A stretch of 64,000 bases of DNA from Deferribacterales bacterium. Its GTDB lineage: Bacteria; Chrysiogenota; Deferribacteres; Deferribacterales; Geovibrionaceae. This document shows, one piece after another, positions 7,498 to 28,407 of the stretch (positions are counted from its first letter, which is position 1; every line of letters starts with the position of its first letter). The notes beneath the pieces were generated by a model. The model saw nothing but the letters and a program-made list of their open reading frames with translations, was not told where the DNA came from and did no database searches. Where the stretch lies: assembly GCA_050251945.1 (NCBI GenBank), contig JBFWLW010000004.1:64001-128000 (forward strand). The letters run 5' to 3'. The position numbers and the translations under genes are program-made.

Positions 7498-8682
7498 TTA
7501 GCCGTTGGCTTTTTCATTTGGCACGTTTTTGGCACTTTTAGAAGTTGAATTGAGTATGCTTACACGTTCGGCACTGTCCTTGTTTATCCGGTTGCCGTAG
7601 GTTTTTAGAAGCATCTGAAGTGTGCTGTGTCCGAGCATATTTTTTATCCAGTTGAGTTGTGCGCCGGCTTCTATGAAAAGGCAGGCGAAAGTATGGCGGG
7701 TTTGATAGATGTTGCGGTATTTGATACCCAGAGCTTTTAGACATGGTTCGTAATAAGTTTTTGATACGTTCTGAATCTGGTGGAAAGGCTCACCAAGGTA
7801 TGACGTAAACATCCAGTCAGATTTCATGAATGAATACTGCTTATGTCTTGACAAATACGGATCAAGGCTCGTTTCTATATCTATTGTGCGGCTTTCTTTC
7901 GTCTTAGTGGATTCTTTTATCTGCCCTTTCGTCATTGTCCTGCGGACATGGATTTTGTTTCTTCTAAAATCAATATCGTTCCATTTCATAGCCATTATTT
8001 CCCCGGTGCGCATTCCTGAAAAAAATGCTACAGCAAAGAAAGCGGTCATGTGAGGATGGTGTTTGTCCATCCAGTCAAGGATCAGCTCTATTTCGTCTTG
8101 CTCAAAAGGGTCTATCTCTGCGGACTGCACACGGGGCTTACTCACATAGCCGCATGGGTTCTTATCGAGAATATCATCAGCAACAGCGGTTTTGAATATG
8201 CTTGAGAGCATACCTATCATATTACTCATGGTCTTAGGGGCAATGTCGTATTCACGAATGAACCCTTGAACTGTGGATGCTTTTATATCTGAAATAGGAA
8301 TGTTTTTAAAGTAGTCGCAGAAGATGTTAATGAATCCGGTGTATGTTCGGAGCGTCGAATATGCCAGAGACTTTTCTTTCAATCGTAACCATTGTTGGGC
8401 GTATACTGAAAAGCCGACAGTTTTAGAAGTGTCTGACAAGCTGAACTTTTTCAGGTTTTTAGATTTCGGGAAATAGTCGCCGTATCGAAAAATACCTTCT
8501 TTGATTTTGCGGTCAATTTCGGCAACATAAGCGGATGCAAGGCGACATTGTTGGCAATTACAACCTGTGTTGCCAGTTTCGCACATGTATTTTGTCGGCT
8601 CGAAACAGCGGATGCCCCGATAGACAAAGAATACCCGTATCTGATTTTTCTTTCCTCTGACTTGTGTTCCGCCCATGCCCAT
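7498..8682 (-). CDS. int: Tyrosine integrase with N-terminal arm-binding domain
   Basis: SGMRTGE, YQTRHTFA and LGH...Y catalytic motifs; adjacent to att. Confidence 0.95.
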   Translation of the reverse strand: MGMGGTQVRGKKNQIRVFFVYRGIRCFEPTKYMCETGNTGCNCQQCRLASAYVAEIDRKIKEGIFRYGDYFPKSKNLKKFSLSDTSKTVGFSVYAQQWLRLKEKSLAYSTLRTYTGFINIFCDYFKNIPISDIKASTVQGFIREYDIAPKTMSNMIGMLSSIFKTAVADDILDKNPCGYVSKPRVQSAEIDPFEQDEIELILDWMDKHHPHMTAFFAVAFFSGMRTGEIMAMKWNDIDFRRNKIHVRRTMTKGQIKESTKTKESRTIDIETSLDPYLSRHKQYSFMKSDWMFTSYLGEPFHQIQNVSKTYYEPCLKALGIKYRNIYQTRHTFACLFIEAGAQLNWIKNMLGHSTLQMLLKTYGNRINKDSAERVSILNSTSKSAKNVPNEKANG

Positions 8683-9323: not shown

Positions 9324-9859
9324 TCACCGCCTTGTTTTCTTCTTAGTGCGCTGAAAAGAAGACTTCTTTCAGCTCTCAGGTTCGCTTTGAAACGATTCAT
9401 AGGACTATCAACCCCATCAAGATAATTCTGTTTCGGGAAAATCACTCTTTCTATTTTTCTTTTTTGGTTAACATACAGTAAGCCCCACCCGTCCAAGATA
9501 TCTGTCAAATCTTCTTGTTTGATAATATCTTCTGGGCATAAAAAAGCTCTATATTGCCCCATCCCTTGTTCGGGATAGGCTCTGAATGTTTTCCTTTTAT
9601 CTGCAAGAAAGTCCGCTCTGCTTGTCTTGCATTCGATAAGAATGGAATAACCGAACTTTATCCCATAAATATCAGGTATCTCTCCAGTTTCGTTAAGGCA
9701 CACAAGCTCTTTTAAAACTATGCCACACCCGAATCCTTTTAGAAACTTTGCTCCAATATCTACAAGCATCTTGTGAGAAAATTCGAGCTTGCCCGATGTA
9801 GGGCATATATCCCTATACCCTAACAATGCTTCTGCTTGGTCGCATAACTGACACATCAC
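9320..9859 (-). CDS. Phage PD-(D/E)XK nuclease-like protein (MmcB-like)
   Basis: EIPDIYG...LIECKTSRADFLAD motif. Confidence 0.7.
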   Translation of the reverse strand: MMCQLCDQAEALLGYRDICPTSGKLEFSHKMLVDIGAKFLKGFGCGIVLKELVCLNETGEIPDIYGIKFGYSILIECKTSRADFLADKRKTFRAYPEQGMGQYRAFLCPEDIIKQEDLTDILDGWGLLYVNQKRKIERVIFPKQNYLDGVDSPMNRFKANLRAERSLLFSALRRKQGGE

Positions 9860-10281
9860 TCACCGCCTTTGAGGGCTTTATCAATAGCTTTATGCGATTC
9901 ACTATCAAGGTCGTGCCCCTCAAAATCCCTCACGAACTCCAATGCCTCCCGCATCCGTGCGTTGTCAGCTCCGAGCTTGATTTTCTCTTCCTGTAAAGTA
10001 ATGTTATAATCAACAAACTCGCCTAACTCAGAATGTTCTATAATGTCGTTCAACTGAACCTTTTCCTCTTCCAGTTCCGCCAGCCGTGCTTTAAGCGCGG
10101 CGTTCTCGGTGGCGAGTGCGTCCTCGACGGGGCGATTATTGACAAGTTCTAAGGCTTGTTCCTCGGTATGAATATAATCACTGATGTAACTGCATTTAAA
10201 GCAATTAACCCACCAGTAATTGTTGTTTCGCTCAATTTTTAATTTACCCCCGCAAAATGGGCATGGTTTAAGCTCGCTCAT
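9856..10281 (-). CDS. Lar family restriction alleviation protein
   Basis: N-terminal ELKPCPFCGG...CFKC. Confidence 0.75.
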   Translation of the reverse strand: MSELKPCPFCGGKLKIERNNNYWWVNCFKCSYISDYIHTEEQALELVNNRPVEDALATENAALKARLAELEEEKVQLNDIIEHSELGEFVDYNITLQEEKIKLGADNARMREALEFVRDFEGHDLDSESHKAIDKALKGGE

Positions 10282-11144: not shown

Positions 11145-12018
11145 CGTCTATGCCCTCTTTTTCATTCGCCGCCTCGATGTCGTCAAGATGCAATTGGTAT
11201 GCTTCGTAAAGCGTTGCCTTCGCCTCGTCCGGTGCAATATGGGTTCCCGCTATGACTATCTCTGCCTTATGGCGCACCCTTGCGGCTATCAGGTCGATTT
11301 CTTCGGTTGCCTGCTCTTCAAAGCTCTTGCCAGATACTTTGAGTTTGCCTGCGAAGTTTTCCTCAAGCACAGCCTTTAAAAAGTCCCTCACTGCGTCTTT
11401 GTGCAGACTGCCTTTGCCGTGTCCCATAGAAACGGATATATCAATTTTCAGCCCCGAAAGAGTTTCCAGCATCTTGAAGTTTTCGCCGATCTCGCTGTTG
11501 AGAATGTTACCGACAAAATCAGCCGCCGGTGCTTCGATAGAGAGGTTGACCTTGCGGAATATCTCCCAATTCAAGACCTGCGTGTATGCGTCATAGCGAT
11601 AAAGCGGGTGTGTGCCTGCCGATGCGTCCCCGGAAAGCCAGCGCACAAAGTCCGAAAAGTTCGACGCTCTGCCGCCGAGCGTCAGGATGCACCCGTTTTC
11701 TGTGTCGATAAGCCCATAGCTGACATCACCGAGGGAATCGGGCGATTCGACAGCCTCTTGAATTTCGCCTTCTCGGTTGAAGCGGACGGGAAGAAATATC
11801 TTTTCCTTAACGATGCCTACAAGATGGAGCGTTCTGTCTGAAAGTTTGATAGGTTCGTAAACTTTAAACATGAGTTCACAGCCTTTTCCATCAAAAAAGC
11901 CATAGTCCATGCCGCCTGACGACAGCATTTCCAGTTTGAAATCCATATCCTGATAAAAGGTGTCCACTGCGGATTCCAGTTTGTAAAAGTTGATTGTTAC
12001 GTTTTTGCGTTCTGCCAT
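11125..12018 (-). CDS. Possible DUF6731/RexA-RdgC-like protein
   Basis: 297 aa; length and N-terminal VTINFY and C-terminal EIDLI pattern resemble this group. Confidence 0.4.
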   Translation of the reverse strand: MAERKNVTINFYKLESAVDTFYQDMDFKLEMLSSGGMDYGFFDGKGCELMFKVYEPIKLSDRTLHLVGIVKEKIFLPVRFNREGEIQEAVESPDSLGDVSYGLIDTENGCILTLGGRASNFSDFVRWLSGDASAGTHPLYRYDAYTQVLNWEIFRKVNLSIEAPAADFVGNILNSEIGENFKMLETLSGLKIDISVSMGHGKGSLHKDAVRDFLKAVLEENFAGKLKVSGKSFEEQATEEIDLIAARVRHKAEIVIAGTHIAPDEAKATLYEAYQLHLDDIEAANEKEGIDDEDCSN

Positions 12019-16897: not shown

Positions 16898-17058
16898 AGG
16901 GGCGGTTCAGGTTTCCGCCCCAAAACTTCTTAAAAACAAGTGGCTTTATCTTACTTTTCTGATTAATTTTATTACTACCCGTCGCCGGGGCATGGTCGGG
17001 TGATGAAGCCGCCATAGTTGCCGTGGTCTGCTAAACCGTTAAGCCGTCACCTCCTGCT

Positions 17059-18425: not shown

Positions 18426-18860
18426 TTAAAAAGTTGATAATCTTTTGAACTCATTAAGCCTTTCAAGCAATTTTTCTTTAAATTCATTCGGGGCGTACAC
18501 CAGCATTTCTATAATTTGTGATTCAATATTATCTTTATTAAATGCTTGGCTGTTGTTAAACGTTCCGGAATTTGTTCCAAACTGAATATTGTTATTACCA
18601 GAATTGTTTTGGTTTACCGAGTAGTCCTCAATTTGGATATCTCCAAAAAAATATGATATTGGCAATTCAAGTATGTTTGCTATTTCTACAAGCCTTGGCG
18701 TTGCAATTCCATTCCCTTGCTTAAGACTTCTGTAAAGAGATGCTGGATCAATATTTAATTGATCAGCAAGTTCAGCAATATTCATATCTCTAAGCTTTGC
18801 GCCAGCCCTTATTCTATCACTAATAACATCAAAAATTTCATGCGGTGCATATTTTTTCAT
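18426..18860 (-). CDS. CI-like XRE HTH repressor lacking an S24 peptidase domain
   Basis: HTH_3 pattern (NIAELADQLNIDPASLYR..RLVEIANILELPISYFF), divergent from a cro-like gene. Confidence 0.85.
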   Translation of the reverse strand: MKKYAPHEIFDVISDRIRAGAKLRDMNIAELADQLNIDPASLYRSLKQGNGIATPRLVEIANILELPISYFFGDIQIEDYSVNQNNSGNNNIQFGTNSGTFNNSQAFNKDNIESQIIEMLVYAPNEFKEKLLERLNEFKRLSTF

Positions 18861-18878
18861 AATCAATAATACTCCATA

Positions 18879-18947
18879 TAACATAACTGTTAAATAGCAA
18901 GGATGTTATATTTATATCTTGACAAACTAACACATATGTTATATCTC
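18879..18947. promoter_or_regulatory. OR region: three operators and PR
   Basis: TAACA-N4-TGTTA at 18879-18892, 18895-18908 (1 mismatch) and 18928-18941; TTGACA at 18919. Confidence 0.8.
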
Positions 18948-20777: not shown

Positions 20778-21203
20778 ATGGCATTACTTGAAATCAACGG
20801 CGTTTGCCGACTGGCACGCAATCCTGAAATACGCTTTCTCCCAGGTTCTGAAATAGCTATCGCTCAATTTGCAGTAGCATGTTCCGAGAAGTACAAAGAT
20901 AAGGAAAAGACGGCTTACTATGACTGTAAAGCGTGGGGAAAGCTGGCTGAAATCTGCGGTGAATATCTGACAAAAGGGTCAAAAGTGTTTATCCGTGGGA
21001 AACTGGAACAGGAGACATGGGAAGACAAAGACAGCGGCAAGATGCGTTCTAAACACGTTATCCGCATAGACAAACTTGAGTTTTGCGAGAGTAAGAAGGA
21101 CGGCGGAAACCAGAACGCTTTTGACGAACCCGTCAGCGGCGGCGGAATGTCTGAAGACGATATTCCATTCGAATCATATATGAATGGGTTGGTCGCCCCT
21201 TAA
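20778..21203 (+). CDS. ssb: Single-stranded DNA-binding protein
   Basis: OB-fold motifs (AWGKLAEICGEYLTKGSKV), DDIPF near the C-terminus. Confidence 0.92.
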   Translation: MALLEINGVCRLARNPEIRFLPGSEIAIAQFAVACSEKYKDKEKTAYYDCKAWGKLAEICGEYLTKGSKVFIRGKLEQETWEDKDSGKMRSKHVIRIDKLEFCESKKDGGNQNAFDEPVSGGGMSEDDIPFESYMNGLVAP

Positions 21204-21403: not shown

Positions 21404-22006
21404 ATGAGAATTTTAAATCTTTTTTCTGGGATAGGCGGCAATAGGGAATTATGGACTAGCAATATAACTGCTGTTGAGGTTGATCCACTAATTGCGGCAG
21501 TATATAGCAATCGCTTTAGTTCTGATACTGTCGTCATTGGAGATGCCTTATCGTTTGTTGAGTTTAACTATAATGATTTTGATTTCATATGGGCAAGCCC
21601 ACCATGCCCATCACACGGACAATATAGGCACAATGTAGGAGTGCTTGGAAAGGGATTCTCTCCAATAATACCCGACATGACATCACTGTATGGATTGATT
21701 ACGTTTTTAAAAACTTACTATAAAGGTTTATGGGCAGTTGAAAATACTATGCCTTATTATGATTTCCTCATAAAACCCACTGTTTTTTTACAGAGACACC
21801 CGATTTGGAGTAATTTTCCTATTCCCCCAAAAAACTTCATGGCTGAAGGAATCAGAGATAAAAATAAAATATCTGATTTCGATGGTTTTGAAATAATTTC
21901 AAAAAGCAAGATTAAGAATAAAAGGCAGGTTATGCGCAATTGTGTAAATCCAGAAATCGGGAAATATGTCTTGGATTGTGCAGTTAGTTATAGAGTTGCG
22001 ATATGA
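21404..22006 (+). CDS. Short C5-cytosine DNA methyltransferase-like protein
   Basis: LFSGIGG (motif I), ASPPC (motif IV), VEN (motif VI). Confidence 0.8.
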   Translation: MRILNLFSGIGGNRELWTSNITAVEVDPLIAAVYSNRFSSDTVVIGDALSFVEFNYNDFDFIWASPPCPSHGQYRHNVGVLGKGFSPIIPDMTSLYGLITFLKTYYKGLWAVENTMPYYDFLIKPTVFLQRHPIWSNFPIPPKNFMAEGIRDKNKISDFDGFEIISKSKIKNKRQVMRNCVNPEIGKYVLDCAVSYRVAI

Positions 22007-22803
22007 TCCCATATTTCAGCAATGACCACGGACAGCTTTTTTGCGGCGACTGCTTAGATATCATGTCAAAAATAGATATTTCTTTTGATGCAGTAATCGC
22101 CGATCAGCCGTATGGAGCGACCGCTTGTAAGTGGGATTCTATTATTCCATTTGTGCCGATGTGGGAAAATATAAATCGTTGCGCTAAAGTTAACGCTGCG
22201 ATAGTTCTTTTTGGTGCAGAACCGTTCAGTTCTGCCTTACGATTGAGTAATTTACGGAATTATAAGTATGATATAATCTGGGACAAAATAAAAGGTACTG
22301 GCTTTTTAAATGCCCGCAGACAGCCGATGCGTAATCATGAATTAATTTCGATATTTTATCGAAAGCAATGTGTTTATAATCCGCAAAAGACAACAGGGCA
22401 TCAGCTTAAAACCTCAAGAAAGAAAGCTTTTTCACAGACCGATGTTTATGGTTTTATGAAAAATGATTGTGAATACAAAAGTGCGGAAAGATATCCCCGC
22501 AGTATCGTTGAGTTTTCGACAGACACTCAGAAAAGTTCGTTACATCCCACGCAAAAACCAATAGCCCTTTATGAGTATTTAATTAAAACGTACACAAATA
22601 AGGGGGATATTGTTCTGGATTTTTGCGCAGGTAGCGGGACTTTGGCTGTGGCGGCTGAAAAATGTGGACGGAAATGGGTCTGTATAGAAAAAGAAGAAAA
22701 ATACTGCGATATCGCTATAAAACGGATTCAGGGAGTGGCTATTGAAGAACCTGCGGATAAACCAGAACTTACAATCGAGGATTTTATCGAGGTGCAGGGA
22801 TGA
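22003..22803 (+). CDS. N4/N6 DNA methyltransferase (beta class)
   Basis: DQPY catalytic variant, HPTQKP, DFCAGSGT. Confidence 0.88.
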   Translation: MIPYFSNDHGQLFCGDCLDIMSKIDISFDAVIADQPYGATACKWDSIIPFVPMWENINRCAKVNAAIVLFGAEPFSSALRLSNLRNYKYDIIWDKIKGTGFLNARRQPMRNHELISIFYRKQCVYNPQKTTGHQLKTSRKKAFSQTDVYGFMKNDCEYKSAERYPRSIVEFSTDTQKSSLHPTQKPIALYEYLIKTYTNKGDIVLDFCAGSGTLAVAAEKCGRKWVCIEKEEKYCDIAIKRIQGVAIEEPADKPELTIEDFIEVQG

Positions 22804-23740: not shown

Positions 23741-24296
23741 TAGGCAAATATTCTTTAAAGGTTTACAGGTTTTATCAGTGCTTCCACAAGGAAAAAATCC
23801 TGTTGATCTCACGGATGAATTCACACTTACAGTTTGGTACGAAGCTCTAGGCGATATTGATAACGATAGCTTCCAGAAAGCGGTGATACTACTGCTCCGC
23901 TCCTCAAAATGGCACCCGGCACCTGTTGATATTCGCAGAGCTGCTGGCTTTATCGAAACCACGGAAAGCGGAAAATCGGATGAAACGGCTATTACTCAGT
24001 GGGAGGAGTTCAGTCGTAAAATCCAGAGTGTTGGGCATCAACGGATGGAACGAATCTGGTACGAAGATAAAAAAGCAGTTTTTGACGATCCAGTAACTGA
24101 TGCTATTGCAAGAACTTTTGCAAAAGAATACGCAATGTCGAACGTCACAGAAGCCGGGAATTGGAGAGCGCGCTTTATCGCAGCATATAACAATTCAAAA
24201 GAACACGGTATTAAAACCGCCGAGGTTCAGAAGATTGGAAATATACTAAGTGGCATGATAGGTCAAAGTGGCAATCTAAAGCTGGTGAAGCCGTGA
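23724..24296 (+). CDS. Helicase loader/inhibitor-like protein
   Basis: WYEALGDI..KWHPAPVDIR; follows the initiator. Confidence 0.6.
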   Translation: MQKQLDRQIFFKGLQVLSVLPQGKNPVDLTDEFTLTVWYEALGDIDNDSFQKAVILLLRSSKWHPAPVDIRRAAGFIETTESGKSDETAITQWEEFSRKIQSVGHQRMERIWYEDKKAVFDDPVTDAIARTFAKEYAMSNVTEAGNWRARFIAAYNNSKEHGIKTAEVQKIGNILSGMIGQSGNLKLVKP

Positions 24297-24691
24297 AAAT
24301 TATAGCATCAGAGCATAATGAACAAGTGTCGCTTTTTCAATGGGCGGCTATGCAGACGGCGAGATACCCGGAACTAGCGCTGATGTTTGCAGTTCCTAAC
24401 GGCGGACTGAGAAACGCCACGGTAGCGGCGAAACTGAAAGCGGAGGGGGTTAAGCCCGGTGTACCTGATATTTTCCTTCCTGTGGTTCGTGGCGGCTATC
24501 ATGGATTGTTCATTGAGATGAAGCGCACCAAAGGCGGCAAGCTGAGTGCGGAACAGGCAAACTGGATAGCCAAGCTTTTAGAGCAGAGATACGCGGTTTA
24601 CAAATGCGAAGGATGGGCAAAAGCGAAAGAGTGTATCGAACAGTACTTAAAACTTGCCCCTGAAAGTGGCAGAAAGGCGGTTTTCCCGTGA
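24293..24691 (+). CDS. VRR-NUC nuclease
   Basis: FAVPNGG, GVPDIFL, FIEMK. Confidence 0.9.
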   Translation: MKIIASEHNEQVSLFQWAAMQTARYPELALMFAVPNGGLRNATVAAKLKAEGVKPGVPDIFLPVVRGGYHGLFIEMKRTKGGKLSAEQANWIAKLLEQRYAVYKCEGWAKAKECIEQYLKLAPESGRKAVFP

Positions 24692-24796
24692 GATATATGC
24701 AAAACAATACCAACGTAGCCCAAGGGGTGCAAAATGCGGCAAAAGGGAAATAAGGGCGAAAGTTTGAAGGGCATGAAAACAAGGGAGGTGTTTTAG

Positions 24797-25039
24797 ATGG
24801 AAACTTCTGAAATTCAATCATTGAAAAACAACGATTTAGCACATTTTATGCCATTAAAGAAAAACTTTACCGTAGAAGAGGTTTCAGTTTATTTTTCATG
24901 TTCCGCTGCAACTATAAAACGAAGGTGCCGTAACGGACAGATTGAAGCTATTAAAATTGGGAAGATATGGAGAATTTCCAGAACAGCTTTATCCGAGTTT
25001 ATCAGATTAAACACGGATAGGGGTCAGCTATCAGATTAA
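24797..25039 (+). CDS. HTH_17/excisionase-like regulator (candidate late regulator)
   Basis: FTVEEVS..TIKRRCRNGQIEAIKIGKIWRI. Confidence 0.75.
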   Translation: METSEIQSLKNNDLAHFMPLKKNFTVEEVSVYFSCSAATIKRRCRNGQIEAIKIGKIWRISRTALSEFIRLNTDRGQLSD

Positions 25040-25056
25040 ACACGGATAGGGGTCAG
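25000..25056. repeat. 28-bp tandem duplication
   Basis: TATCAGATTAAACACGGATAGGGGTCAG at 25000-25027 and 25029-25056. Confidence 0.9.
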
Positions 25057-25354
25057 AGCAATTGGAAAGAGACATGGATTTACTGGAAGAAATCAGACAA
25101 CTGTCCGATGCAATTGATTTTATGCTCAAACATATTGAGTATCAAACAAAAAAGTTTATCAGTAACATACATCATTCCTAACAGATTACACATAAAAAGC
25201 TCGTAACATGCTAATATATAAAACTATTTAGTATTATGTGTAGCTAATACATAGCCTAAAATATGAGAATGCAGACCATAGTAACATATCCGGCACTCAA
25301 ATCAATGTATTTTTAGCCCCAAAATATTTTCTGCAACTTTTTTAATTTTCCCCC

Positions 25355-25383
25355 TTGACAACCCGTGCATTGTACGGTATATT
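25355..25383 (+). promoter_or_regulatory. Strong sigma70 promoter with palindromic operator in the spacer
   Basis: TTGACA-17-TATATT; CCGTGCA-T-TGTACGG at 25363-25377. Confidence 0.8.
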
Positions 25384-25426
25384 TACTTTATCAAGAGCGG
25401 AACAGACCGCAAAAAGGAGCAAGAAA

Positions 25427-25690
25427 ATGAGAAAATTTGAAATAATAAAGACAGAAACAGTAGCCGAAGAAAAAACAACATGGGCACTCGATTGTTTCAA
25501 TGAAGCTCAACCTAGCAAAGATTATGATGCAAGGATTACAAAAAGTTACGTGAGAGCAGAAAGCTTAACAGCTCTTATGGCTGAACTTGAAAAAAACATT
25601 TCTCCTATAGAGAAAGCATTTTCTAAAGTAAAAAGAACCGAAAATACTATTTTTGCAATGTTCACACAAATAACAGCAACTGAAATATAA
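25427..25690 (+). CDS. Small orphan protein, candidate anti-CRISPR/anti-defence
   Basis: AAAAAGGAG RBS, 87 aa, first gene after the promoter. Confidence 0.7.
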   Translation: MRKFEIIKTETVAEEKTTWALDCFNEAQPSKDYDARITKSYVRAESLTALMAELEKNISPIEKAFSKVKRTENTIFAMFTQITATEI

Positions 25691-25777
25691 TCGGAAAAAG
25701 GGCAAATCAACGAAATTGATGATGATGAATTTGAAGATTGAATCACAACGGGATGAACCTCAAAAAAGGAGATAACA

Positions 25778-26050
25778 ATGGCAACTTACAGAGAATACGC
25801 AAAAGAAAACGGACACACAGATGCAGAGATTGAAGAAATGGTAGAAGGTCTTTTCGGCGCAGATGCAGAAATGGTTCTCGCAAGAACCGAAGACGGGAAG
25901 GGTGTTTACAGCGAAGATGAAGGATATCAGAGAACCGAAGATGGAGCGCAAGTTTACAATATGGGCAACGGCTATACTCTATATGTATCAGGAAGCTCTT
26001 ATGACATCGTGGGGCATGATAACGGTGAAACATGGGAACTTGAATACTAA
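25778..26050 (+). CDS. Small highly acidic protein, candidate anti-CRISPR/DNA mimic
   Basis: AAAAAGGAG RBS; about 21 D/E vs 5 K/R in 90 aa. Confidence 0.7.
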   Translation: MATYREYAKENGHTDAEIEEMVEGLFGADAEMVLARTEDGKGVYSEDEGYQRTEDGAQVYNMGNGYTLYVSGSSYDIVGHDNGETWELEY

Positions 26051-26080
26051 AAAAGGCGGCTGTTTAAGCCACCTTTTTTT
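26049..26080. terminator. Bidirectional terminator
   Basis: A6-GGCGGCTG-TTT-AAGCCACC-T7. Confidence 0.7.
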
Positions 26081-26096
26081 GAACTAAGTTCATTTC

Positions 26097-26133
26097 GTTT
26101 CAACTCACAGGGGCGACCGCAATCGCCCCTGAC
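26097..26133 (-). ncRNA. Solitary type I-C-like CRISPR repeat unit (candidate Racr/crRNA-like RNA)
   Basis: RC GTCAGGGGCGATTGCGGTCGCCCCTGTGAGTTGAAAC: GT + 9-bp stem + 11-nt TGAGTTGAAAC tail. Confidence 0.6.
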
Positions 26134-26163
26134 TTTCACAAAGGATAGCACACGGAAAATAAA

Positions 26164-26421
26164 ATGCAAATAAAACTATCAGCGCCAGAACTCAGAAAAA
26201 TTTTTGGACTTACTAACAGGGAGATTTCCGCGGCACTTGGCAAGCCTTTGAGTACCATTGAGCAGCACATGGCGGCGCGGGAATCAGCACGCCACCGGAA
26301 TATGCCTGATTCAGATAAGATGCTGCTCATTTTACGCTACAAAATTATAGAGATGGGATATAATCCCGATAAACTGATAGATGATTTTTTAAGTGAACAC
26401 AATAAAAGCGACGGGGCATAA
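26164..26421 (+). CDS. HTH regulator, Aca-like
   Basis: LRKIFGLTNREISAALGKPLSTIEQHMAA..HRNMP; last gene of the cassette. Confidence 0.65.
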   Translation: MQIKLSAPELRKIFGLTNREISAALGKPLSTIEQHMAARESARHRNMPDSDKMLLILRYKIIEMGYNPDKLIDDFLSEHNKSDGA

Positions 26422-26530
26422 CCCCGCTTTTTTTGTGCCAGAATCTCTATTATTTTAATAAACTCTCGTTTTATCGCTCACATCGTTCTCACCGTCCACA
26501 GAAATTTTTAAGATATGCAATATTAAGGGC

Positions 26531-27019
26531 ATGAATAAAAAGCCTGCTCCTGCGCAAAAAGAGAAAAAAAAGGTCGGAAAGCCCACAAAAATAGGCAATC
26601 TCTTCCTGCCTGCTCTGAAAATGATGTGGAAAAAAGGCTTCACCGATGTTGAGATAGCGCAGGCTTTTGATATAACCGAGCAAACACTCTATAACTATAA
26701 AAAACAATACCCTGAAATTTTTGAGAAAGAAAAAGACTGGAAAGCGGAAGCGGACGCAGCTGTCGAACGCTCTCTTTTTGAGCGCGCCAAAGGTTTTTCG
26801 GCGAAAGAAACAAAAGTCTTTGTTTATAAAGGCGATATAATAACAGAGGATGTTACAACGAACTACCCGCCAGACACGACGGCTTGTATCTTCTGGCTGA
26901 AAAACCGGAAAAAGGATGAATGGCGAGACAGGGCGGAACTTGATCATGGAAGCTCTGATGGCAGTATGACCCCGCAAATCAGCTTCTATTTGCCGGACAA
27001 CGGGAGAGGTGGCGAATGA
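26531..27019 (+). CDS. Terminase small subunit
   Basis: HTH plus ADAAVERSLFERAKG..PPDTTACIFWLKNR. Confidence 0.85.
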   Translation: MNKKPAPAQKEKKKVGKPTKIGNLFLPALKMMWKKGFTDVEIAQAFDITEQTLYNYKKQYPEIFEKEKDWKAEADAAVERSLFERAKGFSAKETKVFVYKGDIITEDVTTNYPPDTTACIFWLKNRKKDEWRDRAELDHGSSDGSMTPQISFYLPDNGRGGE

Positions 27020-28407
27020 AAAACGCCGCCGTTCTTGACGAAAGAGAAATTATAAATATCAGCCCGCAACCGGGACCACAGGAAATGTTTCTGTCGTCTC
27101 CTGCGGACATAGTGATTTATGGCGGGGCAGCTGGGGGAGGCAAAACCTTCGGGCTTTTGTTAGAGCCGCTCCGCCATATCAATAATCCTAAATTCAGCGC
27201 GGTTATATTCCGCCGTACATCAAACCAAATTGATACGGCAGGCGGTTTGCTTGATGAATCAAAAAATCTGTATGCATCTGCTAATGCAACGTTAAAAGTA
27301 GCACCAAACTATCAGTGGCGTTTCCCGAGCGGAGCGAAAGTACAGTTCCGCCACCTGCAATACGAAAACGATTTAATGAGTTGGCAGGGTTCGCAGATTC
27401 CGCTTATTTGCTTCGATGAAGTTACGCATTTCACAAAAAAACAGTTTATTTATATGCTTTCCCGTAACCGCTCAACATGCGGAGTTAATCCGTATATCCG
27501 CTGCACATGCAACCCTGACCCTGACAGTTTTGTTGCGGAAATGATTGAGTGGTGGATAGATCAGGAAACAGGCTTTGCGATCCCCGAGCGTTCCGGAGTT
27601 ATCCGGTATTTTATCGTTATTGATGATGCTTTCGTATGGGCAAGCACGCGTGAAGAACTGACAGAACTTTATCCTTCAAATCAACCTATTTCTTTTACAT
27701 TCATAGCATCAAGTATTTACGATAATAAAATATTGCTCGAGAAAGACCCGAAATATATAGCAAACCTTGATGCTCTTGGCAGAGTTGACAGAGAGAGGCT
27801 TAAGTTTGGCAACTGGAAAATACGTCCGCAATCTGGGCTTATCTTTAAAAGAGAATGGTTTAAGGTTATCGACGCTTCGGAGCTTCCGCCCCTTTCTCTC
27901 CGCAGAACTGCGAGAGCGTGGGATCTGGCGGCAACCGAGAAGACGGAAAACAATGACCCCGATGCAACAGCATCTGTGAAAATGTCGGAATTTGATGGCA
28001 TGTATTACATTGAGCATGTTTCTCATGATTGCATGTCTCCGGCGAAAGTCCGTGATTCAATCAAGAATCTGGCAGGGCTTGACGGCTTCAAATGCACAAT
28101 AAGATTGCCGCAAGACCCCGGACAAGCGGGCAAAGCGCAGGCGGATGATTTTTGTAAACTTCTGACCGGATTTACATTCAGCATAAAGCCCGTTTCTGGT
28201 GATAAAATCACCCGTGCAGCGGGCATATCGGCTCAGGTTGAGCATGGTAAAGTATGTTTAGTTCGTGCGCCATGGAATGAAAAATTCCTGTCAGAGTTGG
28301 AAAATTTCCCGGATGGTGCGCACGATGACATGGTTGATGCGCTTTCCGATGCGTTTGACGAGCTGGCAAGAGATGGCGTTTTCATGGATTACGGAGCGTT
28401 GTTATGA
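27016..28407 (+). CDS. Terminase large subunit
   Basis: YGGAAGGGKT, FDEVTHF, TCNP, WDLA, HDDMVDA. Confidence 0.95.
   Translation: MKNAAVLDEREIINISPQPGPQEMFLSSPADIVIYGGAAGGGKTFGLLLEPLRHINNPKFSAVIFRRTSNQIDTAGGLLDESKNLYASANATLKVAPNYQWRFPSGAKVQFRHLQYENDLMSWQGSQIPLICFDEVTHFTKKQFIYMLSRNRSTCGVNPYIRCTCNPDPDSFVAEMIEWWIDQETGFAIPERSGVIRYFIVIDDAFVWASTREELTELYPSNQPISFTFIASSIYDNKILLEKDPKYIANLDALGRVDRERLKFGNWKIRPQSGLIFKREWFKVIDASELPPLSLRRTARAWDLAATEKTENNDPDATASVKMSEFDGMYYIEHVSHDCMSPAKVRDSIKNLAGLDGFKCTIRLPQDPGQAGKAQADDFCKLLTGFTFSIKPVSGDKITRAAGISAQVEHGKVCLVRAPWNEKFLSELENFPDGAHDDMVDALSDAFDELARDGVFMDYGALL

Follow-up and report, generated by a model that had tools for sequence, protein, structure and literature searches.

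In acr-aca operons, small and variable cargo genes follow a strong sigma70 promoter whose core contains an inverted repeat, and a small HTH protein is encoded at the end; such operons are found on mobile elements beside terminase or head genes. The inverted repeat in the core promoter is the general Aca site (PMC9410906). The locus described here, located in a 64-kb stretch of DNA from a Deferribacterales bacterium (the window), has all of these traits, its terminal HTH protein being of Aca1/Aca10-like fold. It differs from the described operons in that a terminator and a predicted antisense RNA unit separate the cargo from the HTH gene, in that one related cassette (L079) has exchanged the regulator altogether, and in that the HTH protein of the window does not significantly match any named Aca in sequence.

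Among the Racr/SRU elements, RacrIC1, encoded beside acrIC5, inhibits type I-C systems (PMC10651486). The repeat-like element of the window resembles these elements as a solitary intergenic unit in a prophage; it has putative acr neighbours, and neither cas genes nor additional repeats are located close by. RacrIC1 forms a bicistronic, co-directional unit with its acr gene (PMC10651486), whereas the element found here is antisense, with a promoter motif and a terminator of its own. Hosts of Racr elements usually, although not universally, carry the matching CRISPR subtype; here, cas1, cas7, cas8c and cse1 had no match in the host genome (99.97% complete). Type I-C crlRNAs, which regulate Nezha and Gabija (bioRxiv 10.1101/2024.12.27.630466), are built of a pseudo-repeat hairpin, an 11-nt handle, a spacer-like part of approximately 16 nt and a 3' hairpin, and the window element shares this build. 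The crlRNAs are encoded within cas operons of the host and target a promoter site flanked by TTC, while the window element is phage-borne and no target was found for it in the sequences searched (see below). The AcrVA2/FinQ family (PDB 7ci1) has a clear homologue in one related cassette (L056/L059) but none in the window.

Judged from the sequence, the locus is on balance probably a two-layer anti-CRISPR module, in which an acr-aca type operon is combined with an independently transcribed, Racr-like decoy RNA for Cas5c/Cascade. The cassette was not the subject of any paper listed in the literature searches; its repeat element could be among those in the SRU tables of PMC10651486.

Anatomy of the cassette and of its relatives

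The window contains a temperate siphophage-like prophage with antirepressor, terL, portal, capsid and tail genes in addition to those listed in Table 1. The cassette had been predicted to lie between a late regulator and terS; the upstream gene is HTH_17/excisionase-like and nothing points to late regulation. A perfect 28-nt tandem duplication (25000-25056) extends across the 3' end of this gene. The other parts of the original prediction, namely a near-consensus promoter with a palindrome in its spacer, two small ORFs, each behind an RBS, and an 85-aa HTH gene followed by a terminator, were all recovered. Promoter P1 matches the consensus at 11 of 12 positions and is the top of seven sites in 24000-28000, where shuffled sequence yields 7.6 sites at the looser 9/12 bar. 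The background for the palindrome is 0.17% of sampled genome 15-mers. ORF2 is acidic as described (21 D/E versus 5 K/R, pI 4.05), while the expectation of acidic gene products fails for ORF1, which has no such bias (14 D/E versus 13 K/R).

Two parts had been missed, a terminator-like hairpin between ORF2 and the HTH gene and a repeat-like element on the minus strand next to it. The ORFs and the HTH gene are in place as expected for a three-gene operon, but it is not a simple one, since this terminator interrupts it before the HTH gene. On the minus strand, the hairpin is fully paired and followed by a T6 tail, while on the plus strand it is mismatched (−10.4 versus −8.3 kcal/mol in the window, −10.5 versus −4.3 kcal/mol in L056).

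Table 1. Features of the cassette and of the surrounding prophage, with positions in the window
Feature	Position	Strand	Remarks
Integrase	7498-8682		window prophage
Repressor-like gene	18426-18884		window prophage
HTH_17/excisionase-like gene	24797-25039		upstream of cassette
Predicted promoter P1	25355-25383	+	TTGACA-17-TATATT
Putative operator	25363-25377		CCGTGCA-T-TGTACGG, 7-1-7 inverted repeat in P1 spacer, 6/7 pairs
ORF1	25427-25690	+	87 aa; RBS AAAAAGGAG
Acidic tail	25691-25741	+	16 codons, in frame past ORF1 stop
ORF2	25778-26050	+	90 aa; RBS AAAAAGGAG
Bidirectional terminator-like hairpin	26049-26079	−	between ORF2 and HTH gene
Type I-C repeat mimic	26097-26133	−	solitary, 37 nt; between ORF2 and HTH gene
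Putative antisense promoter P2	26142-26170	−	extended −10 TGCTATCCT (26150-26142); weak −35 TTTGCA overlaps HTH start codon
Aca-like HTH regulator	26164-26421	+	85 aa
Terminator 3' of HTH gene	26412-26434	+	ahead of terS; hairpin 26412-26426 and T tail
terS	26531 (start)		window prophage

Five such cassettes were found, all in prophage or viral sequence. Besides that of the window, these are a second copy in the host genome (contig C12, where the prophage has another head module), one in contig C3 of congener G005 (the only one of six congeners), and those of the viral contigs L056/L059 and L079, which were obtained by promoter-pattern and stem-pattern searches, respectively. Viral contig L015 carries the same cassette sequence as G005 and was counted once with it, and three of the five cassettes came under a single IMG/VR dataset prefix. 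Two of the five promoter-pattern matches (L057, L060) were dropped as unrelated promoters, and two of the five stem-pattern matches (L076, L078) because the handle is missing.

The order is the same in all five cassettes: P1 with its palindrome, cargo, terminator, hairpin element and regulator gene. The P1 frame is kept throughout and occurs at a second site in L059. The cargo, by comparison, is exchanged: of the seven cargo proteins compared, ORF2 and its G005 form are the sole related pair, which gives six families, two of them strongly acidic. The window cassette is very probably a real, modular cassette of the Aca type.

Regulator, operator and cargo proteins

The HTH family comprises four proteins among 74 candidates from a set of 5.8 billion, and was found in two of the 68 genomes of the phylum, with one additional weak partial match. 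Operators and regulators change together. The C12 and G005 cassettes have an identical operator (CCGAATA-A-TATTCGG, 7/7 pairs) and an identical recognition helix (SERAIEMYFS), while the operator of the window is combined with the helix PLSTIEQHMAA. In L056, a 5/7 operator is present at two promoters of the contig and the helix is SVRAVEQYLAA. The L079 cassette has the operator CTGCACA-A-TGTGCAG (7/7), and its regulator slot is occupied by a non-homologous gene (L079 1557-1937) encoding a 126-aa protein with an extra N-terminal domain. HTH identity is weakly hinted for this protein, which is possibly a fusion of the Acr-Aca type. The symmetry of the palindrome is kept while its sequence changes, as cognate operator-repressor pairs predict, and the HTH protein would accordingly be expected to bind the palindrome in P1.

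The structural model of the HTH protein (pLDDT 82.8) is based on a three-sequence alignment. In a fold search against 48,161 chains, Aca10 ranked first (Z 7.6, rmsd 2.1, 55 aligned residues) and Aca1 second (Z 7.2, rmsd 3.0, 63 aligned residues), both with Z below 8 and tied with non-Aca chains, HTHs among them. AcrIF25, the HTH region of AcrIF24, Aca7, Aca2 and Aca11 were found lower in the list, and Foldseek placed Aca10 and Aca1 at ranks 2-3 (E 0.11). The proposed assignment to Aca3-type regulators was not borne out, the HTH profile reaching only E 1.3 with Aca3 and the top fold matches being Aca10 and Aca1 instead. The protein would work in an Aca-like manner.

HTHs of the HigA/MqsA type are also among the fold matches (Z 5.3-5.5), and Aca and antitoxin HTHs are alike (PMC9410906). 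Both points would agree with an ordinary moron or a toxin-antitoxin-like unit, in which the cargo is a toxin or superinfection factor, the HTH protein an antitoxin and no defence is inhibited. That one regulator type is combined with six unrelated families of cargo argues against such a unit, as do the presence of the repeat mimic, the AcrVA2 neighbour described below and the lack of any toxin family match, and it is considered highly improbable.

The neighbourhoods of the HTH homologues, to which the original prediction had pointed, include an AcrVA2 homologue directly behind the HTH gene in one relative. The 317-aa protein encoded 14 nt 3' of the HTH gene in L056/L059 (L059 521-1474) matches AcrVA2 with E 6.7e-21 and keeps the C-terminal HxR motif. 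A homologue of a known Acr is a neighbour of one of the four HTH family members, and a single Acr family is concerned. A further cargo protein of 112 aa (L059 1563-1901) is encoded behind the second promoter, which has the same operator, and both together would form a small regulon. Since FinQ is one of the AcrVA2 homologues and most of these occur without Cas12a (bioRxiv 10.1101/2022.11.29.518452), the link is to inter-element conflict in general.

ORF1 is an orphan, for which only the protein itself was found among three candidates. It had no significant family or PDB match, and Atlas matches were below the bar. The acidic tail in frame past its stop is probably the relic of an earlier cargo gene. 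In a DNA contig of depth 2 (run X2), the start of ORF1 is joined to the 25691-25741 tail via other sequence, which hints at a further cargo variant.

For ORF2, 20 representatives were found at E ≤ 0.001, including some long proteins of repetitive sequence; the family is mostly 66-112 aa in size and has a conserved core. An internal duplication of approximately 16 residues in the ORF2 of the window (25883-25958) is absent from all aligned relatives. Two longer proteins, of 914 and 210 aa, end in the ORF2 domain (P0010 844-914, P0012 131-210). The G005 form, the sole cargo of its cassette, gave a confident alpha-beta model (pLDDT 89.5), for which fold searches returned nothing at E ≤ 0.001 (best Z 4.7); Atlas searches with ORF2 were blank or under the bar. 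No known Acr was matched by ORF1 or ORF2 in Pfam, PHROGs, NCBIfam and PDB sequence searches, or by the fold of ORF2. In an annotated phage collection, an ORF2 relative had no match and the HTH protein one weak match.

Outside the genus, seven ORF2 loci represent five contexts. Inspected by eye, ORF2 comes first after a consensus-like promoter in two of these and is part of a run of small genes in two, while one contig is too short; in three of the five it is located back to back with a terminase-like gene. Neither a repeat mimic nor an obvious HTH neighbour was found near the ORF2 relatives in the five contexts. In unrelated phage-like contigs, the family is again found behind strong promoters, and its contexts fit an early anti-defence gene. 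Inhibition of CRISPR by ORF1 and ORF2 is possible, albeit slightly doubtful. As for the acr-aca cassette originally proposed, the swappable cargo, the joint change of operator and regulator, the fold ranks of Aca10 and Aca1, the AcrVA2 neighbour and the congener spacers (see below) speak for it, while the Aca3 assignment and a link of ORF1 or ORF2 to known Acrs found no support in the searches made.

A type I-C repeat-like element on the minus strand

The element (26133-26097) consists of GU, a stem of 9-10 bp and the 11-nt handle UGAGUUGAAAC. Cas5c reportedly recognises the stem base and the 3' overhang and leaves an 11-nt handle (PMC5965381, PMC8524198), and the determinants of type I-C processing are kept in the element (2-nt 5' overhang, stem base and 11-nt tail). 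Its minus-strand fold has a z of −4.0, and the array repeat of congener G002 folds alike (2 nt, stem, 11 nt) with a 7-bp stem. The final 12 nt of the element are those of the G002 repeat. This 12-mer occurs twice in the host genome, both times in cassettes, with 0.41 occurrences expected genome-wide and 1.5e-4 in 1.1 kb. The other handle variants, TGAATTGAAAC and TGGATTTAAAC, are equal to or one base off the repeat tails of G026, which lie beside a Cas8c fragment. Over the full length, 24 of 37 columns (65%) agree with the G002 repeat, the nearest of the repeats compared here, and the stem of the mimic is longer; SRUFinder, which has a library of 17,823 repeats, requires a repeat identity of at least 90% (PMC10651486).

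Between cassettes, 30 to 37 of the 37 positions of the element are identical, compared to 2 to 9 of the following 11 nt, and conservation falls directly after GAAAC. All 64 of 64 stem cells are paired, with one compensatory pair; covariation in the four rows is not significant (134 of 500 shuffles). A TGnTAnnnT motif ends 7-8 nt ahead of the element in all five cassettes (background 0.2-0.8% per site), which does not amount to five independent events since the cassette copies are related. L079, in which the downstream gene is different, also has this motif, together with a perfect TTGACA. The predicted antisense RNA has a length of about 79-86 nt, and the element is likely to be transcribed and processed as an antisense type I-C repeat mimic.

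The hairpin folds almost equally well on the plus strand, approximately 30 nt before the HTH start, and a handle-less version of the stem is found in an unrelated phage (two of the five stem-pattern matches). Furthermore, type I-C is rare in the phylum, Cas8c being above the cut-off in four of 68 genomes, none of them of this genus. These observations would suit a merely structural hairpin in an Aca-type module, involved in mRNA processing or stability, in translation control of the HTH gene or as a DNA site, with the handle match as a relic or chance. This explanation is quite unlikely considering that the 12-nt identity is located exactly at the 3' boundary of the congener repeat, where so few occurrences are expected in 1.1 kb, that the drop in conservation follows right past GAAAC, and that an oriented promoter motif and the terminator asymmetry are present in five of five cassettes.

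With a transcribed repeat mimic as the preferred reading, the cassette would function in two layers. In the first, P1 would drive the swappable small cargo genes (ORF1, ORF2), directed against CRISPR or other defences, on phage entry or induction. The terminator, weak on the plus strand, would partly be read through, so that the HTH protein is made and, by binding the palindrome located in the spacer of P1, switches this promoter off. In the second layer, an antisense RNA from P2 would start approximately 2 nt before the mimic and end at the shared terminator. Cutting of this RNA by host Cas5c is expected because the stem base and the 11-nt 3' overhang are kept, and the product (handle, 17-23 nt of filler and hairpin) would act as a non-targeting decoy that sequesters Cas5c/Cas7c beyond control by the P1 operator. 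If this holds, the layout suggests how a phage could uncouple a protein response that is transient and autorepressed from an RNA decoy that is driven separately.

The same RNA might act as a crRNA-like guide, the 17-23 nt left after Cas5c cleavage steering host Cascade to a cas, defence or rival-element promoter in order to repress it. The build shared with the published crlRNAs is in line with a guide, as are the filler lengths of 23, 23, 17, 17 and 17 nt, which differ by a 6-nt step. Such a step fits the periodicity of Cas7. Against this, no PAM-flanked seed match was found in the five own elements, hits in ten cas/array loci were as frequent as in shuffles or marginally more so (0-4 versus 0-3), the filler of the window had no match in the host genome, and the fillers are AT-rich and unconserved; a guide is considered unlikely. 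Since the filler is unconserved, a decoy is the better reading, and the chances that the mimic acts in this way appear evenly poised. More tentatively, the element may be a phage-borne, degenerate I-C crRNA mimic which is reduced to the recognition points of Cas5c, is transcribed antisense within an acr-aca operon by a promoter that overlaps the aca start, persists through replacement of cargo and regulator and would add a second layer of CRISPR suppression beyond the reach of the operator.

In Rfam, no family came near its gathering score with the window or the C12 cassette. An RNA model run over the 68 genomes gave more than 100 bits only for the three training cassettes, and the other 29 matches had at most 41 bits; six of these low-scoring matches were inspected and discarded as plain terminators. 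As a model for the mimic, the I-F repeat of G005 is unlike it. A type III repeat of 37 nt has a similar last 10 nt, with a stem ending 8 instead of 11 nt from the end (by eye), and is a lesser alternative. A G/C hairpin after the HTH gene in C12 and G005 was rejected as a second mimic, its loop being inverted between both and the hairpin diverged in L059. This hairpin, absent from the window, resembles type I-E repeats of G041/G042 (L001 8836-8870, L005 1455-1495).

If the reading as an RNA decoy is true, RNA anti-CRISPRs are commoner than identity-based surveys show, since a stem and an 11-nt handle may suffice. Degenerate mimics would be overlooked in SRU searches based on identity, and as a new marker they could point to anti-defence loci; used in this way, the mimic here would flag six candidate cargo families and a new Aca-like family. 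The cassette provides a short list of testable items: one RNA of approximately 85 nt, a new Aca-like regulator whose operators vary naturally, and the six families of small cargo proteins.

CRISPR spacers against the lineage and host setting

The arrays and cas genes of congener G005 are presumably of type I-F and type III, judging from repeat sequence and gene appearance. A set of 55 spacers (27 type I-F, 21 type III and 7 type I-C) was compared with three prophage regions, and 21 spacer-target pairs were better than the best of 20 shuffles, with about eight expected by chance. In the window, clear spacer matches are located at 16955-16986 (30/32, CC PAM), at 20973-21004 (25/32, CC PAM) and at 11849-11876 (27/28, antisense to the gene located there). 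For one of the type III spacers, the top match in each of the three targets (23, 22 and 23 of 29) is within the HTH gene of the cassette, antisense and in frame, but the peptide encoded at this site is a common HTH motif. Spacers against this lineage appear to stem from systems of types I-F and III.

In G005, the cassette prophage on contig C3 adjoins the I-F locus (L048, L049, L051, L052), the spacers of which match it at 27/32 and 25/32 positions with a CC PAM, a possible case of priming-level self-targeting of the neighbouring prophage. In congener G002, which has the I-C array (contig C7, 1-760), cas1, cas7 and cas8c were not found, and the array begins at the contig end. One spacer of this array agrees at 26 of 33 positions with an antirepressor-like gene in the prophage of C12, without a TTC PAM. 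A search of the host genome with a simple array finder gave two loci, one of which is a coding repeat.

Besides the cassette, the window contains a match to Lar-like restriction alleviation proteins (9856-10281) and two genes which by eye are DNA methyltransferase-like (21404-22803), all of this being additional anti-restriction content. A second terminase-like match on the contig of the window (C4, 280888-281466) points to another prophage.
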